Assembly (NCBI GenBank): GCA_910579215.1
Contig: CAJTTN010000006.1
Span: 57,376 to 121,375 of the forward strand
Origin: an uncultured Anaeroplasmataceae bacterium
GTDB lineage: Bacteria > Bacillota_I > Bacilli_A > Acholeplasmatales > Anaeroplasmataceae
Length of the DNA: 64,000 nt
Direction of reading: 5' to 3'
Shown here in pieces: positions 1 through 5,688 of the stretch. Below the pieces are notes generated by a model, which saw only the letters and a program-made list of their open reading frames with translations, ran no database searches and was not told where the DNA came from. The position numbers were made by a program, and so were the translations under genes. Position 1 is the stretch's first letter. Each line of letters starts with the position of its first letter.

Positions 1-3000
1 TTAAATTCAGTTTCTATGAATAATAGCGTAATTGTATCTTTTAACTACGATAAGAAAAAGGGCTTGCTTACAGGACAAACATATGGGTCAGGAGGAACCT
101 ATAATTTTTCTTATAACTCTAAACAGCAAATTACTGATATTCGCTTTAATGGAATTTTGAAGTATCACTATAGCTATGATGTTAATGATCGATTGAAAGA
201 TATTAAGGATGGAACGGGAAATATAATAAAGGCTTATACATATGATAATGATGGACAAGTATTAAAGGCAGAGGAAAAAGAATCAGTTATAGAATATGAA
301 TATAATACGTTAGGAGAAATTAATCGTAAAAAGAGACTGTTAAATTCAAAAACGATCTATGAATCCTATGATAATATTTCTAGTTCTAAAGGTTTTAGTC
401 CAGATAATTTAATTGGATATTTACAGGGAGATACAGACTATTTAGGAACCATGTTTCTTGATTCTGCAGAGTTGAAAAATCCGTTGTATATACTAAGTGC
501 TATAAATTATAATACAAATAATAAAAGTAACCCTATATATATAAGAAAGAAAAAAGTACCATGTGTTCATTGTGGATTATTTAATCCTATGAGTTATAAT
601 CCTCCTATGAAAAATAATACAGAGGATTGTGGAAGTATAGGATTCTGGTTTTATCCTACAAATTTACCTTTGGGCAGTAATAAAAAGTATCTATTTAGTA
701 TAAAGAATAAAACATTGCCATGCTTTGTAGCAGCATATTTCAATAGTTCAGGAAAACTAGTTTTAGAGACTAAAGATTCAAATAATGTAATAGAAACAAG
801 AACTATAGATTCTATAATAAGATTAAATACCTGGAATTTTTTTGGTCTTAATTTCGCATATCGGATAGATGAAGTTGGTACCTCAGGTGGCTTTTCATTT
901 GAACTATACCATAATTCTAAATATTTAAAGGGAACTATAAGCAGAACTATACGTGTGGGATCTATAACTCCATACCACATTGGCTATCGTTTTGATGGAA
1001 CTAAGGGATATGATAGTTTAGAATGTCCTATTACAGCATTAGTGCTAGGAAGAAGATTTTATTTAAGTTCAAAGCAAATGCAAGATTTTTATAGTACAAC
1101 TAAAGATTATATCTTAGGAAATTCTTATTTAGATGAGGATAGTGTCAACTTTAGTTCTACAACCATATACAATCTATCTGAATCTATGTTGAATCAATTT
1201 GAAATATACCCACTACAAAATAATGTAACTTCTTTAAAAGGAAAGAAACCAGTAGTCTTTGATGCAAGAGTTGTAAGTTCTACAGATAAAGATAGGACAT
1301 TTAACTTTAATAATTTAAGTAAAAGATGTGCGTTTATGGCAGAGGGAAATCGATTAGAGTATGATCTAGCTATGAGTCAAACAGGAACCATACTTATGAG
1401 AGCCTTTATAAAGGAGACTATTGATAAGCAATATCTATTAGAATGTAAGGATAGTAAAGGATATACCATTGGATTATATAGAGAATATGATACCTACTTA
1501 AGTATAAAGGTTAATAGTTCAACGATTAAAACAAATTTAAAACTTCCAACAGACATATGGAATACAGTAGGAATATCCTTTACAGAGGGTTCCATATCTT
1601 CTTCGACAGGAGATCAAAAATATTTAACTGTTCGTGTATATTTAAATGGAAATACTTATACAAGTAATATTCAAATTAATACATCCTTTGAATCTTTAAT
1701 TTTATCAGTAGGACGTACAACTAAAAAGGTAAGCATTCAAACTGCAATGGGAACTTATGAAACTTGCTATCCTATGCTAGGTCAAATTGAAATGCTTTCA
1801 ACTCGTGCTGCTTACTGTGAAGTAGAAACATTAAATACGTTGGCTGATGAATTAAAATCAACATCATTCGTATCAGAATATGACGAATTAGGGTTACTAA
1901 ATAAAAGAGCAATAAAAAAAGATAATGAAGATGACGTGATGTCTATTAATTATGAATATAAAAAAAGGTGTACTCCTGAAAGTTATCCTGAAATAGAATG
2001 TTTTATACGAGATGTGGAGCAGCTTTTTGAAATTAAACCAAATGAAAGCTTTACCTTCCAGAAAAATGGGGTCTATATAGGCTATGTTCAAGATGTTCAA
2101 CTATTAAACCCTGATATATTTCATACAAAGGTTGTATGGGATATAAGTGAAGAAGCGCTTGATGATTTTGGAGAGGAAGGACAAACTCATTATTACCATA
2201 TGGACCAAGCCTTCATGTTTTTAGAAAACAATACATGGACAAATACTTCTCAATATAGTATGTTCTTAATAGATTTAGGCTATAGTTTTGGAGATATCTC
2301 CTATATTTCTACTGCTATTAGTAAGGAGACCTATGATACTTATGGTGGCTATCATACAGAACGAACATATAAAACAAATGCCTTAGGTCATATAGAGAGT
2401 ATACAAGATTCTACCTTTGGAAGTCATACCTACAGTTATAATGCACGAGGCTTTTTAACAAAAGAGGACTCTATAAATTATGAATATGATGCAAATGGTA
2501 ATATAACTAAAGTGGGGACAATAACATTTAAATATGACACAACCATCAAGGATAGATTGATACTAGTAAATGGGAAAGAAATATCCTATGGAACCAATTC
2601 ACTTAATCCAAATAGTTACGATGGAATTACTTATGAATGGGAGGGAAGAAGACTAGTAGGCTTATCCAAGCGAGGAGAAACTAAGCATGTATACACCTAT
2701 AATTCAAATGGTCTTAGAATAAGTAAAAGTATTACCAATGAAAATACAAATGAAACAAAAAGAACAAGCTTTTATTATGATGGGGATAAATTAATTACAG
2801 AGATTTCTCCTAATTATAGATTAGACTTCTTATATAATGAAAATGATCAATTATATGGACTTATTTATAATAATGAAAAAAAGTTTTACTACGTTAGAGA
2901 TTTCTTACAAAATATATTAGGCTTAGTAGATAGTGATGGTGAGCTTGTGGTAAAATATGGATATACGGCTTATGGTAAAATCACTTCTATTACAGACACG

Positions 3001-3729
3001 TCTGCTATATCAATAGGAACTTATAATCCATTTAGATATAAAGGATATTATTATGATATAGAAACTGAAATGTATTATTGTAGAAGTAGATATTATGTTC
3101 CAGAATGGTGCAGATGGTTGAACGCAGATAATATTAATTATCTTCAATTTCAAAGCATAAATGATATGAATTTATTTTGTTATTGTAAAAATTATCCTGT
3201 ATCTTTTAGCGATAAATGTGGAACCAATTGGTGGACAGATATTTGGGATTGGTTTTCTAATACTTTTGGACTATCTATTACCTCTAAGAAGGAATTTGAA
3301 ATTGAGTCACATTACTTCATTGTTTCAACCATAACAACAGGGACTGGATATTCTAAATCTTATAGTAATGGTAAACCTGTGAATCTTGCGGTTACTCTTC
3401 CGACAAAATGGTATAGATTTTGGGAATTTTCTGTTGGCATTGATATAAATGTAAATGGATATGGTGTAAGTATGGGATTAGGAGGAGAAGCATCTTTTGG
3501 AATACATGCGGGAAAATCAAATTTTGATATATCTTATAATGCTAAGGGACGATTTGGTTTTCAATATACTGTACAGGAGGAAAATGGATTATATTCCTTT
3601 ATAAAGGGTACTATAAATTATCCTGAAATTGTAGCAGCAGCTGCATTAGCAGTTTATGGTTTACCAATAATAGCACCAGCGCTACCTTCTATAGTTCCTG
3701 CATTAGGTGTCGTCTTAGCATTCTTATAA
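1..3729 (+). CDS. RHS/YD-repeat polymorphic toxin, C-terminal part (5' end lies outside the window)
   Basis: Frame 1 is open from base 1 (no stop before the first ATG at 16), so the gene continues upstream. Many YD repeats are present (YSYDVNDRL, YTYDNDGQ, YEYNTLGE, YSYNARGF, YEYDANGN, YTYNSNGLR). An RHS repeat-associated core follows (FYYVRDFLQNILGLVDSDGELVVKYGYTAYGK...PFRYKGYYYDIETEMYYCRSRYYVPEWCRWLNADN), then a ~170 aa variable tail. Confidence 0.9.
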   Translation, partial: LNSVSMNNSVIVSFNYDKKKGLLTGQTYGSGGTYNFSYNSKQQITDIRFNGILKYHYSYDVNDRLKDIKDGTGNIIKAYTYDNDGQVLKAEEKESVIEYEYNTLGEINRKKRLLNSKTIYESYDNISSSKGFSPDNLIGYLQGDTDYLGTMFLDSAELKNPLYILSAINYNTNNKSNPIYIRKKKVPCVHCGLFNPMSYNPPMKNNTEDCGSIGFWFYPTNLPLGSNKKYLFSIKNKTLPCFVAAYFNSSGKLVLETKDSNNVIETRTIDSIIRLNTWNFFGLNFAYRIDEVGTSGGFSFELYHNSKYLKGTISRTIRVGSITPYHIGYRFDGTKGYDSLECPITALVLGRRFYLSSKQMQDFYSTTKDYILGNSYLDEDSVNFSSTTIYNLSESMLNQFEIYPLQNNVTSLKGKKPVVFDARVVSSTDKDRTFNFNNLSKRCAFMAEGNRLEYDLAMSQTGTILMRAFIKETIDKQYLLECKDSKGYTIGLYREYDTYLSIKVNSSTIKTNLKLPTDIWNTVGISFTEGSISSSTGDQKYLTVRVYLNGNTYTSNIQINTSFESLILSVGRTTKKVSIQTAMGTYETCYPMLGQIEMLSTRAAYCEVETLNTLADELKSTSFVSEYDELGLLNKRAIKKDNEDDVMSINYEYKKRCTPESYPEIECFIRDVEQLFEIKPNESFTFQKNGVYIGYVQDVQLLNPDIFHTKVVWDISEEALDDFGEEGQTHYYHMDQAFMFLENNTWTNTSQYSMFLIDLGYSFGDISYISTAISKETYDTYGGYHTERTYKTNALGHIESIQDSTFGSHTYSYNARGFLTKEDSINYEYDANGNITKVGTITFKYDTTIKDRLILVNGKEISYGTNSLNPNSYDGITYEWEGRRLVGLSKRGETKHVYTYNSNGLRISKSITNENTNETKRTSFYYDGDKLITEISPNYRLDFLYNENDQLYGLIYNNEKKFYYVRDFLQNILGLVDSDGELVVKYGYTAYGKITSITDTSAISIGTYNPFRYKGYYYDIETEMYYCRSRYYVPEWCRWLNADNINYLQFQSINDMNLFCYCKNYPVSFSDKCGTNWWTDIWDWFSNTFGLSITSKKEFEIESHYFIVSTITTGTGYSKSYSNGKPVNLAVTLPTKWYRFWEFSVGIDINVNGYGVSMGLGGEASFGIHAGKSNFDISYNAKGRFGFQYTVQEENGLYSFIKGTINYPEIVAAAALAVYGLPIIAPALPSIVPALGVVLAFL

Positions 3730-3778
3730 TTCTATATAAACAGCACTATATTAATTAGTAAATAGTTAAACTATTTCA

Positions 3779-3815
3779 GGGGCTGTTAAGAAACTAAAAA
3801 GTTTCTAGCAGCTTC
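3779..3815. repeat. IS terminal inverted repeat (end next to the transposase stop codon)
   Basis: ggggctgttaagaaactaaaaagtttctagcagcttc is the reverse complement of 5535..5571, with a 2-nt swap at positions 29-30. It contains an internal hairpin, agaaact-aaaa-agtttct. Confidence 0.9.
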
Positions 3816-5478
3816 TTTTTTTGTATTTATAAGACTTACGGAGAGATTCATTCACTCCTTTCTTTCGAGTTTTTTTAAAAATCTTATCATAGTCTATTTT
3901 TGGGATAGTTTCAGGTTTCAAATCTATAGGAGCAACCCAATAATCTGTTTTAGCTTTTCCCTCAATCAAAGAAAAGAGTTTTCTAATATTATAGCCAAGA
4001 CAAACCAGCATAAATTCTAAAGAAACGTTTTGAAGACCACGACGCCTAGTTCTATCATAAACCATATCTTGTTTAATAACACCAAAAGCCCCCTCTACTT
4101 GAGAACTCCGATTTACTCTCATCTCAATACCTTTGGGAGATAAAAGGTATTGAGTAACTTTCTTTTTGATTATAGAATAATCATAATTGACATCAAATAT
4201 ACGATAGTTTCTAATCACCTTGAGATTGGCTTGACAATACTTTTTTAATCTACAATAAGAACAAGATTGAATTACATATAAGAAAGATCCCTTGTGAGCA
4301 TATCTATTCTCAAAAAACCTAGTTTTAAGAGCCACTTTATGATTCATACAAATTAAATCTTCATTATCATTAAAGTAAAATAAATCATAAGTGTCACCAG
4401 AAACAACCTTAGCCCAATCAGCAAATTTTATATAGTTTTCAATGTTGTTATTTTGAAGGAAACTATAGTTTTTCAAAGAACCATACCCAGCATCACCACA
4501 AAGCCTTTTTGGGAAAAAGCCATATAATTGATAAAATTTTTGTAGAGTTGGAATTAAAGTATATTGATCTGTTCTATCGCAAGAGATATAAAAGGACAAA
4601 ATAATACCTTTAGAAACGATAATTTGGAAGTTATAAGCCGCATGAGTATTACTGCCTAGACCAGAATAGTAATCTTCTTTAAGACACATAGCAGTAGCAT
4701 CATGGTCAGTTTTAAAGTAAGAATTACGATTTGGACCACAAATTCTTTCTTTTTCTTCATAGTCTAAAAGTTTAATTAAATAAGTAGAAAGTAAAAGATA
4801 ATCAGAAACAATTTTAGGATTACGATGACCTCTACCAATCTTTATAGTATTGATATCTATATTTTGTTTTTTTAAAAGTTCTAGCATTAAAGAGACATAG
4901 GAGGCAACCTCTTTAGAAACGAAAGTAATTTTGTTTTCTGATAGAGGAAAGTATTGGATTAGAAGTAATTTAATTTTATCAAAGAGATTTATTTTAAAAG
5001 TGGTAGGTTTATATACAAATTTATATTTATTAGCATTGGCTTCAATTTTAGTACCATCAATGAAACAATCATCAAAACAGAAATTATACTTTAAGAGGAT
5101 GGTTTTAGTAATAGAGACAAAGATGGCTTCAAAGTGTTTAACAACTATGTTGTTAAGAAACTTAGAAATAGTAACATAGGAAGGGGTTTCTTGATTTAAT
5201 AGGTAAATAAATCTTAAATCAAATTTGATACTTTCCTCAATTTTTCTTAAACTACCTGAATGTTTTGAAAAGGCATAGATAATGGCAGCAAATAAACGAT
5301 ACGGATTATAGGAGTTTCTTCCTCCTAAACTTCTATCCTTATTAGTCTCTTTGTATATAATTTCACCCACACCAGATTCTTCTAATAATCTTAAAAAAGT
5401 ATCTATTTTTTCTCTTTCCCCTCGGTCTAGCTCAGCGGTAGGAAATAAATGGTCTTGAAAGACAGTAAAAAATGGCAT
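3805..5478 (-). CDS. IS1182-family DDE transposase
   Basis: The N-terminal segment (GGRNSYNPYRLFAAIIYAFSKHSGSLRKIE...PSYVTISKF) resembles the DUF772 transposase domain. DGTKIEANANKY and CGDAGYGS match DDE segments. The C-terminal VEGAFGVIKQDMVYDRTRRRGLQNV...LGYNIRKL is typical of IS1182/IS5 transposases. RBS ggaggtg lies upstream of the ATG. Confidence 0.85.
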   Translation of the reverse strand: MPFFTVFQDHLFPTAELDRGEREKIDTFLRLLEESGVGEIIYKETNKDRSLGGRNSYNPYRLFAAIIYAFSKHSGSLRKIEESIKFDLRFIYLLNQETPSYVTISKFLNNIVVKHFEAIFVSITKTILLKYNFCFDDCFIDGTKIEANANKYKFVYKPTTFKINLFDKIKLLLIQYFPLSENKITFVSKEVASYVSLMLELLKKQNIDINTIKIGRGHRNPKIVSDYLLLSTYLIKLLDYEEKERICGPNRNSYFKTDHDATAMCLKEDYYSGLGSNTHAAYNFQIIVSKGIILSFYISCDRTDQYTLIPTLQKFYQLYGFFPKRLCGDAGYGSLKNYSFLQNNNIENYIKFADWAKVVSGDTYDLFYFNDNEDLICMNHKVALKTRFFENRYAHKGSFLYVIQSCSYCRLKKYCQANLKVIRNYRIFDVNYDYSIIKKKVTQYLLSPKGIEMRVNRSSQVEGAFGVIKQDMVYDRTRRRGLQNVSLEFMLVCLGYNIRKLFSLIEGKAKTDYWVAPIDLKPETIPKIDYDKIFKKTRKKGVNESLRKSYKYKKRSC

Positions 5479-5534
5479 GAAAAAACACCTCCAGATACTT
5501 TATTGTATCAAAAAGGTGCATTTTCTAACAAAAT

Positions 5535-5571
5535 GAAGCTGTCAGAAACTTTTTAGTTTCTTAACAGCCCC
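5535..5571. repeat. IS terminal inverted repeat (end next to the transposase start codon)
   Basis: gaagctgtcagaaactttttagtttcttaacagcccc pairs with 3779..3815. Confidence 0.9.
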
Positions 5572-5644
5572 TTTTTTCTCTAAATGTAGGATTAATGTAT
5601 ATTGAAAAAAATAAAGAGGCCGATGAGCGTTACCAAGCCTCTTT

Positions 5645-5672
5645 AAAACAAGAAAAGGGACAATTTGTCCCT
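5645..5672 (-). terminator. Rho-independent terminator of rpmB
   Basis: On the minus strand, stem GGGACA / TGTCCC (5657-5662 / 5666-5671) with a 3-nt loop is followed by TTTTCTTGTTTT. Confidence 0.7.
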
Positions 5673-5688
5673 CTTAATATTACTCATA

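Follow-up and report, generated by a model that had tools for sequence, protein, structure and literature searches.

A putative membrane-inserting C-terminal cargo of an RHS protein from an uncultured Anaeroplasmataceae bacterium

Introduction

The stretch of DNA analysed here, called the window throughout, comprises 64,000 nucleotides from an uncultured Anaeroplasmataceae bacterium (GenBank: GCA_910579215.1, contig CAJTTN010000006.1, positions 57,376 to 121,375) and opens within a gene for an RHS protein. Behind the RHS core this protein ends in a domain of its own, the tip, which an earlier note, made from the letters of the window, had singled out. In this work we have analysed the tip, its relatives and the genes that accompany them, and we lean towards the reading that the tip, as the cargo of a polymorphic RHS toxin, inserts into membranes and probably forms pores, and that it belongs to a family without prior annotation. 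This reading is strengthened by an uncharged tail found throughout the family, by beta-periodic amphipathic strands, by fold matches to outer-membrane barrels and by the membrane-anchored proteins encoded downstream of the tip at nine out of nine related loci.

Organization of the tip-bearing RHS gene

The features of the gene are listed below in window coordinates.

1..3729, plus strand: 3′ part of the RHS/YD-repeat gene, 1242 codons plus the stop codon of a 1903-amino-acid protein
2962..3222, plus strand: RHS repeat-associated core (self-cleaving plug), TIGR03696
3223..3264, plus strand: N-terminal Trp-rich amphipathic helix, tip residues 1-14, TNWWTDIWDWFSNT; helix 2-14 in the AlphaFold model
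3265..3618, plus strand: nine-stranded antiparallel beta domain, tip residues 15-132, from the AlphaFold model
3616..3627, plus strand: N-x-P-E hinge (NYPE) joining the beta domain and the tail, from family conservation
3628..3726, plus strand: hydrophobic C-terminal tail, tip residues 136-168, IVAAAALAVYGLPIIAPALPSIVPALGVVLAFL, with prolines 148, 152, 155 and 159

The open reading frame (ORF) carrying the tip is already open at window base 1 and ends with the stop codon at 3727-3729 on the plus strand, and the start of the gene lies approximately 2 kb 5′ of window base 1. The part inside the window is 98.95% identical to the C-terminal 1242 amino acids of the 1903-residue RHS protein encoded by L016, a contig of the same species. 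Pfam and NCBIfam models recognise YD repeats in it (PF05593 RHS_repeat, E 2.7e-10; TIGR01643, E 2.1e-08), its homologues are annotated with a TEN_YD-shell, and the shell aligns with the solved Rhs chains 8h8a and 8qjb (E 3e-14 to 7e-11) as well as with TcC chains. Large inserts that are not of the YD type lie in the shell at window positions ~400-1700 (residues ~130-560 of the window ORF); on the homologues P0032 and P0038 precomputed Pfam matches assign such inserts to Laminin_G_3, a concanavalin-like lectin domain. In a cocoon otherwise devoid of targeting domains, these lectin-like inserts may serve to bind receptors.

The core model TIGR03696 (Rhs_assc_core) matches residues 983-1069 of the ORF read as 16..3726, over profile positions 1-75 of 76 and with 59.5 bits (cut-off 32.5 bits). 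Both aspartates of the core are kept, D1038 in RWLNAD (nt 3127-3129) and D1066 in PVSFSDKCG (nt 3211-3213); in a residue-level alignment to RHS2, TccC2 and TccC3 they fall under the Asp of RWLSADP and of NNPVxxxDxxG, the window core reading DKCG in place of the usual DPxG. From the conserved core motif we infer that the tip is released by self-cleavage and encapsulated. The start of the tip was set at nt 3223 because the TIGR03696 match ends right there, which gives a domain of 168 residues (3223-3726) directly after the core. The earlier note had placed a domain of ~170 residues at this very position, behind the core and a segment resembling a cleavage site, and the three peptides that it quoted are all present.

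Predicted structure of the tip

AlphaFold2, supplied with a 63-sequence alignment (A1), gave a model of the tip with a mean predicted local distance difference test score (pLDDT) of 94.4 and a predicted template modelling score (pTM) of 0.79, whereas input of the single sequence reached a mean pLDDT of only 49.6. The N-terminal helix is amphipathic, with a helical hydrophobic moment of 0.51 that is equalled by 0.6% of shuffles; its hydrophobic positions 3, 4, 7, 10 and 11 are kept across the tip family, and in some relatives it is enlarged to repeated W..D helices.

The helix is followed in the model by nine antiparallel strands, in line with the description of this body as beta-strand-like in the earlier note. 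The family signature of the beta domain reads GxGYSKSF..GKP.NFY..P..WW.FWE.S.G.D.N..GYG.G...G.E.S...H......GR.G.K.....G.Y.Y.K...N., and its strands alternate strictly between two faces, one hydrophobic (I 18%, V 15%, F 13%, L 9%) and one polar (G 22%, S 18%, N 12%, E 10%). Beta-periodic hydrophobic moments are significant in strands 3, 4, 6, 7 and 8. Almost all of the family-conserved residues sit on the polar face (G16, E24, E38, G40, G42, G72, D74 and N76, and further along G81, G87, E89, H95, S100, Y124 and Y126), which is also the more conserved in residue identity, with a column entropy of 1.82 bits against 2.76 bits for the hydrophobic face (p=2e-6). Near-invariant positions (at least 90%) are limited to G40, K51, G72, N76 and G87. 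The window tip itself has T38, N100 and Q114 at positions where the family has E, S and K.

The hinge between the beta domain and the tail is present in most members, with N132 conserved in 78%, P134 in 59% and E135 in 65% of them. Behind it the protein runs out in the ~33 uncharged residues that had been noticed at the stop codon: the last 33 positions (3628-3726) are free of D, E, K, R, H, N and Q, a property found in none of the 45 other window ORFs of at least 120 amino acids. Alanine (27%), leucine (18%), valine (15%), isoleucine (12%) and proline (12%) dominate the composition of the tail; its mean Eisenberg hydrophobicity is 0.77 and its best 19-residue Kyte-Doolittle window reaches 2.18. 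In the model the tail lies inside a single long helix, 133-167 (35 residues, pLDDT 88-94), and we take it to be the membrane-inserting segment.

A family of tips carried by RHS proteins

As proposed in the earlier note, the same tip was sought on other scaffolds, together with adjacent immunity genes. An exhaustive HMMER scan of 1.84 billion representatives returned 116 representative clusters at E≤1e-3, 66 of them at E≤1e-10. This overturned the view of the tip as an orphan, which a word-indexed search had suggested by giving one fragment of the same gene (nine proteins when an alignment was used). The fragment, P0001 from ENA, is the sole word-indexed match for the tip alone and ends in ...RSEEHTSELQSQR, which is presumably an Illumina adapter in translation and would make the public contig an adapter chimera.

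In every carrier protein found the family match is C-terminal, and the RHS core motif stands immediately 5′ of the tip in 44 of the 46 members that have at least 90 amino acids of upstream sequence. The N-termini of the carriers vary, being a bare cocoon that starts M..GLKxYTKQ, a signal peptide or a CBM96 domain. One tip on differing RHS N-termini is the modular behaviour expected of polymorphic-toxin cargo.

The tail is common to the family. Alignment positions 136-143 are 0% charged and positions 144-160 ~0-18%, a motif Y-A-P-x-x-L-P-x-L-x-P is conserved (with Y145, P148, P152 and P155 kept), and 85% of the 82 complete members reach the transmembrane threshold, a 19-residue window with a Kyte-Doolittle value of at least 1.6, within their last 45 residues. 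In the most divergent tip subfamily the tails read ...YIRTIPT....

None of 63 family members matches any Pfam or NCBIfam model, the window tip has no significant family match in PHROGs, and the best match of the A1 profile among all PDB chain sequences is at chance level (E 0.088). The earlier remark that the tip bears no recognisable enzymatic toxin motif agrees with these searches. In databases the members are called at best 'hypothetical protein [Clostridia bacterium]'. Nearly all of them come from uncultured bacteria, through metagenomes and metagenome-assembled genomes (MAGs); the closest full-length relative, with 56% tip identity, belongs to an uncultured Anaeroplasmataceae MAG from rabbit.

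Comparison of the predicted fold

The best fold matches of the tip model are outer-membrane barrels (the nearest known systems being the small barrels OpcA, KdgM/NanC, Omp33 and OmpT, together with designed transmembrane barrels, TMB10_163), with soluble up-and-down barrels and helix-grip folds mixed among them (DUF3224, UPS1/PRELI, START, dirigent/AOC, lipocalins). No Foldseek match at E≤1e-3 was obtained in the PDB or in BFVD, a viral library. On this outcome the predicted fold is best described as a small up-and-down barrel or a strongly curved sheet that has no solved homologue, and the likeness to small outer-membrane barrels would be one of architecture only. Remote homology and structure prediction, which the earlier note had recommended, have led to no known enzymatic toxin family and to a predicted beta domain with a terminal helix.

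Indirect arguments favour a predicted barrel with the hydrophobic strand face turned outward. The opposite face, conserved and one-fifth glycine, is typical of the interior of a narrow membrane barrel and atypical of a solvent-exposed sheet, and a 33-residue hydrophobic helix with four prolines and no polar side cannot fit into a barrel of 8-9 strands. Among 82 related sequences weak covariation was found between positions 36 and 130 and between 42 and 124, with an identical register sum; it is compatible with pairing of strand 9 with strand 2, i.e. with closure of a barrel, and gives a hint only. Associations of acidic with basic residues (e.g. 24-128 and 74-128), significant in Fisher tests, were set aside as evidence of contacts as they follow subfamily splits.

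A membrane protein encoded downstream of the tip in relatives

At nine out of nine related loci (L001, L002/3, L004, L005, L006-8, L009-11, L012-14, L022/23 and L024) an ORF of 157-212 amino acids begins 9-183 nt 3′ of the tip-bearing gene. Each product has one or two N-terminal hydrophobic (transmembrane) segments, followed in most cases by a Lys-rich stretch and a helical domain. Eight of the nine proteins are homologous, in that a hidden Markov model (HMM) built from six of them detects the seventh (5.6e-29) and the eighth (2.9e-4). The ninth (L012 9440-9913), which is paired with the most divergent tip subfamily, is a distinct protein with two transmembrane segments; it is not recognised by the immunity HMM and has weak DUF5381 and YcxB-like matches. 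The protein of L004 has weak TPR-like matches, and in Pfam no downstream protein scores above threshold.

These downstream proteins have the appearance of membrane-bound immunity proteins. Immunity to a membrane-acting toxin would be expected to reside in a small, membrane-anchored protein co-varying with the cargo. One of the pairs, P0012 in L024, consists of a 389-amino-acid orphan core-plus-tip protein and its 187-amino-acid partner and stands within a classic orphan toxin-immunity array. This array (L024 1-6135) starts with a full RHS gene and a 124-amino-acid partner, continues with the P0012 pair and then holds more pairs. Another array of RHS orphan modules was seen at L009 12946-14111, where a second RHS fragment lies downstream.

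The locus in the window species

The whole locus was obtained from a Joint Genome Institute (JGI) metagenome contig, L015, which is 99.2-99.4% identical to the window over two aligned blocks, and from six contigs of the same species, L016-L021. The genes occur in the order: a 96-amino-acid protein with a transmembrane segment and a coiled coil (phrog_1863), a 97-amino-acid phage-type holin (Phage_holin_5_2; phrog_1129, E 9e-16), a 169-amino-acid protein, a 305-amino-acid Polbeta/NTP_transf_2 protein, the 1903-amino-acid RHS protein and, convergently, rpmB. A cassette of the ~96-amino-acid phrog_1863 protein, the ~97-amino-acid holin and one or two Polbeta/NTP_transf_2 proteins of ~290-305 amino acids is conserved directly 5′ of RHS genes that lack a signal peptide. 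In the window species it lies upstream of window base 1 (L016 16110-18114), and it was also found at L001 2166-5075, L002 3637-5989, L005 2473-3981, L006 1544-3983 and L012 1636-3988. Its composition suggests a holin-dependent release system for RHS proteins in gut Bacillota and Anaeroplasmataceae. A literature search combining holin, RHS and nucleotidyltransferase, and another for RHS in Mollicutes, gave nothing relevant and no description of such a cassette. At L002 12840-16749 a holin-nucleotidyltransferase-RHS-immunity cassette adjoins the conjugative-element genes PcfJ, PcfK and ArdA, which suggests horizontal mobility of the cassette.

Downstream of the RHS gene the window contains an insertion sequence (IS):

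3778..5572, minus strand: insertion sequence with 43-nt terminal inverted repeats at 3778-3820 and 5530-5572
3805-5478, minus strand: 557-amino-acid DDE transposase of the IS (Pfam DDE_Tnp_1_6, DUF772, DDE_Tnp_1)

The IS is polymorphic within the species, being present in the window and in L018 (GCA_948611885.1) and absent from L015, L016, L017 and L019-L021. It replaced exactly the 22-nt terminator hairpin of the RHS gene, accatctcagtaatgagatggt, and no obvious target-site duplication accompanies it. In the IS-free allele (L015 4507-4690) the RHS stop codon is followed only by the hairpin accatctc-agtaat-gagatggt with a T-run and then by the convergent rpmB, and between the RHS stop (3729) and rpmB the window (3730-5688) has no ORF except in the IS. 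Neither tblastn nor the immunity HMM detected an immunity homologue in the 64-kb window or in the 20-kb loci of L016-L021. The idea that the IS had destroyed an immunity gene was ruled out: since the IS-free allele carries only the terminator hairpin at the site, no such gene was removed. The 169-amino-acid ORF of the cassette was considered as a relocated immunity gene and rejected, as it has no obvious transmembrane-like stretch on reading and does not resemble the immunity family. Possible explanations are an immunity gene at another place in the genome, a producer that is intrinsically insensitive, or a system that is not directed at kin.

Discussion

Comparison with known systems

On the features tested the window protein is a full member of the RHS polymorphic toxins, except for an adjacent immunity gene. 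With WapA and other RHS toxins of Bacillota, and with TcC/TccC, the system has in common the YD cocoon, the core with two aspartates, a variable cargo, a downstream immunity gene and orphan modules. The known cargoes of WapA and TcC are soluble enzymes, e.g. tRNases and ADP-ribosyltransferases, whereas the tip appears non-enzymatic by every sequence test applied and is read as membrane-directed.

The closest likeness in behaviour would be to Tse5 (PA2684) of Pseudomonas aeruginosa, an RHS-encapsulated toxin with a pore-forming C-terminal domain (PMC9637101, PMC10684867), whose immunity protein Tsi5 has two predicted transmembrane segments (PMC9637101). Like Tse5-CT the tip is a hydrophobic cargo of ~150-170 amino acids without an enzymatic signature, placed after an RHS core that would likewise cleave itself through a conserved Asp; solubility kept by the cocoon and depolarisation of the target would be expected for the tip by analogy, and a small integral membrane protein as the immunity partner would have its counterpart in the relatives. 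The two differ in their predicted structures, transmembrane and amphipathic helices in Tse5-CT (PMC9637101) and nine beta-strands with terminal helices in the tip. No sequence similarity between them was detectable, with 8cp6 and 9i9y included in the PDB chain library, where the CT fragment is perhaps not among the chains. Delivery differs as well: Tse5 travels through the type VI secretion system by means of a PAAR-like N-terminus and VgrG, while the window RHS protein has no such N-terminus and is encoded behind a holin gene in a low-GC organism.

A second comparison is offered by TelE, EsxX and TspA, glycine-zipper LXG toxins that depolarise membranes and depend on the type VIIb secretion system of Gram-positive bacteria (PMC10434224, PMC12744356). 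The tip would resemble them as a polymorphic cargo from Bacillota directed at the cytoplasmic membrane, with Gly-rich conserved motifs and membrane proteins as immunity partners; it differs in its RHS scaffold and has no sequence match to them, and no LXG or WXG gene was found in the tip-family neighbourhoods examined. Its glycines G79, G83 and G87 are spaced four apart, but G81 and G85 intervene, and the prediction for this segment is a beta-hairpin, not a helical GxxxGxxxG zipper. As far as sequence comparison tells, the tip belongs to neither the Tse5-CT nor the glycine-zipper LXG family.

Alternative explanations and points against a membrane-inserting tip

One alternative is that the beta domain is a soluble barrel, hydrophobic inside and binding a lipid or other ligand, of the type known from lipocalins, START, PRELI or helix-grip proteins. 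In its resting state such a barrel would shield its own hydrophobic C-terminal helix. Instead of forming a pore it would extract or sequester a membrane lipid or a lipid-linked precursor, or would simply be tethered to the membrane by the tail. We consider this fairly unlikely. An enzyme of an unrecognised class, acting e.g. on lipids or cell-envelope precursors while the tail only anchors it, is unlikely. The conserved polar residues E24, E38, K51, D74, N76, E89 and H95 could form its active site; however, K51 and N76 are the only near-invariant residues that are not glycines, conservation of H95 reaches only 62%, the window protein departs from the family at 38, 100 and 114 as described above, and no enzymatic family was detected in Pfam, NCBIfam or the PDB sequences. 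The tail would act on the producer's side in a further explanation, as a C-terminal sorting or anchoring signal composed of a motif, a transmembrane helix and a basic end in the manner of LPXTG or PEP-CTERM. The conserved N-x-P-E immediately before the hydrophobic stretch fits such a signal, and a minority of tails do end in a single K or R (e.g. P0002, P0012, P0014, P0015, P0031, P0033, P0037 and P0038). A basic end is absent from the window tail and from most others, none of the CTERM-type NCBIfam models matches, and gene calls in the neighbourhoods examined included nothing like a sortase or exosortase. Being 3′ of the presumed RHS self-cleavage site, the tail would moreover not stay on the shell, and such a signal would explain neither the paired downstream protein nor the conserved beta domain of 120 residues. 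We regard a sorting signal as very improbable. The mere anchoring tail that the earlier note had allowed for is unlikely for the same reason, since the tail lies past the presumed cleavage site.

It is also conceivable, though improbable, that the locus is a decaying or non-functional remnant whose tip has no current function in this species. The failure to find an immunity-like gene in the window or the 20-kb loci and the replacement of the terminator hairpin by the IS, in the window and in L018, would fit decay. The 1903-codon RHS ORF and the upstream holin/nucleotidyltransferase cassette are intact in all six contigs L016-L021, which speaks against simple decay, as do the near identity of the L016 protein to that of the window and the retention in the window tip of nearly all residues conserved in the family. 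Returning to the membrane-inserting cargo, several findings weigh against it. The difference in conservation between the strand faces disappears under a reduced amino-acid alphabet; E38 and K114, conserved elsewhere, are missing from the window tip and from its closest relative; and an adjacent immunity-like gene, the lack of which is unusual for an active self-targeting toxin, is missing here. The proposal in the earlier note of a membrane payload rather than a cytoplasmic enzyme accordingly stands as regards the direction towards the membrane, to which tail, strands, fold matches and partners all point, and is weakened for this particular species by the missing immunity-like gene.

Proposed mode of action

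On present evidence the tip most likely harms the membrane of neighbouring bacteria rather than being an enzyme, and it is toxicity, membrane insertion and pore formation that we infer for it. The RHS aspartyl protease would cut after ...SDKCG(T), and the hydrophobic 168-residue fragment would stay soluble within the RHS cocoon. The RHS protein, which lacks a signal peptide, would leave the cell with the aid of the co-encoded phage-type holin; a precedent for such release is the Tc toxin of Yersinia entomophaga, exported by a holin-dependent type 10 secretion system (PMC10847048). At a neighbouring cell the cocoon would free its cargo, and the uncharged tail would enter the cytoplasmic membrane spontaneously, in the fashion of a tail anchor. 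The beta domain might then insert, its Ile/Val/Phe face turned to the lipid and its Gly/Ser/Asn/acidic face bordering either a narrow lumen or an interface between oligomer subunits. Ions would leak through the leaky barrel or oligomer and the membrane potential would be dissipated. Producers would normally be shielded by the membrane-bound immunity protein, which in this species may have been lost, may never have been present at this position or may be encoded elsewhere.

A bolder version, which we put forward as a tentative and minority possibility, would make the tip the first self-inserting small beta-barrel plus transmembrane-helix protein known as an RHS cargo, within an undescribed delivery system of a phage holin, one or two nucleotidyltransferase-fold proteins and a bare cocoon whose producer is intrinsically insensitive. 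It would imply that bacteria lacking an outer membrane make a barrel of the outer-membrane kind, keep it soluble within the cocoon and aim it at the cytoplasmic membrane of competitors. The delivery system would be one of gut Bacillota and Mollicutes-like bacteria, with lectin-like inserts in its cocoon, and the producer would be insensitive e.g. by not having the receptor or envelope feature that the toxin needs.

Significance

RHS cargo domains rank among the chief sources of new antibacterial activities. To our knowledge the characterised ones are almost all soluble enzymes, with Tse5 as the best-studied exception. The tip family would be a second family of membrane-directed RHS cargo, unrelated to Tse5, with more than 100 clusters, a confident predicted fold that has no solved or annotated relative, and matching immunity candidates. 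If the barrel reading is true, the tip would provide a compact self-inserting barrel useful for studies of BAM-independent insertion and for pore engineering. The family also hints at a holin-linked route of RHS export in wall-less or Gram-positive gut bacteria.

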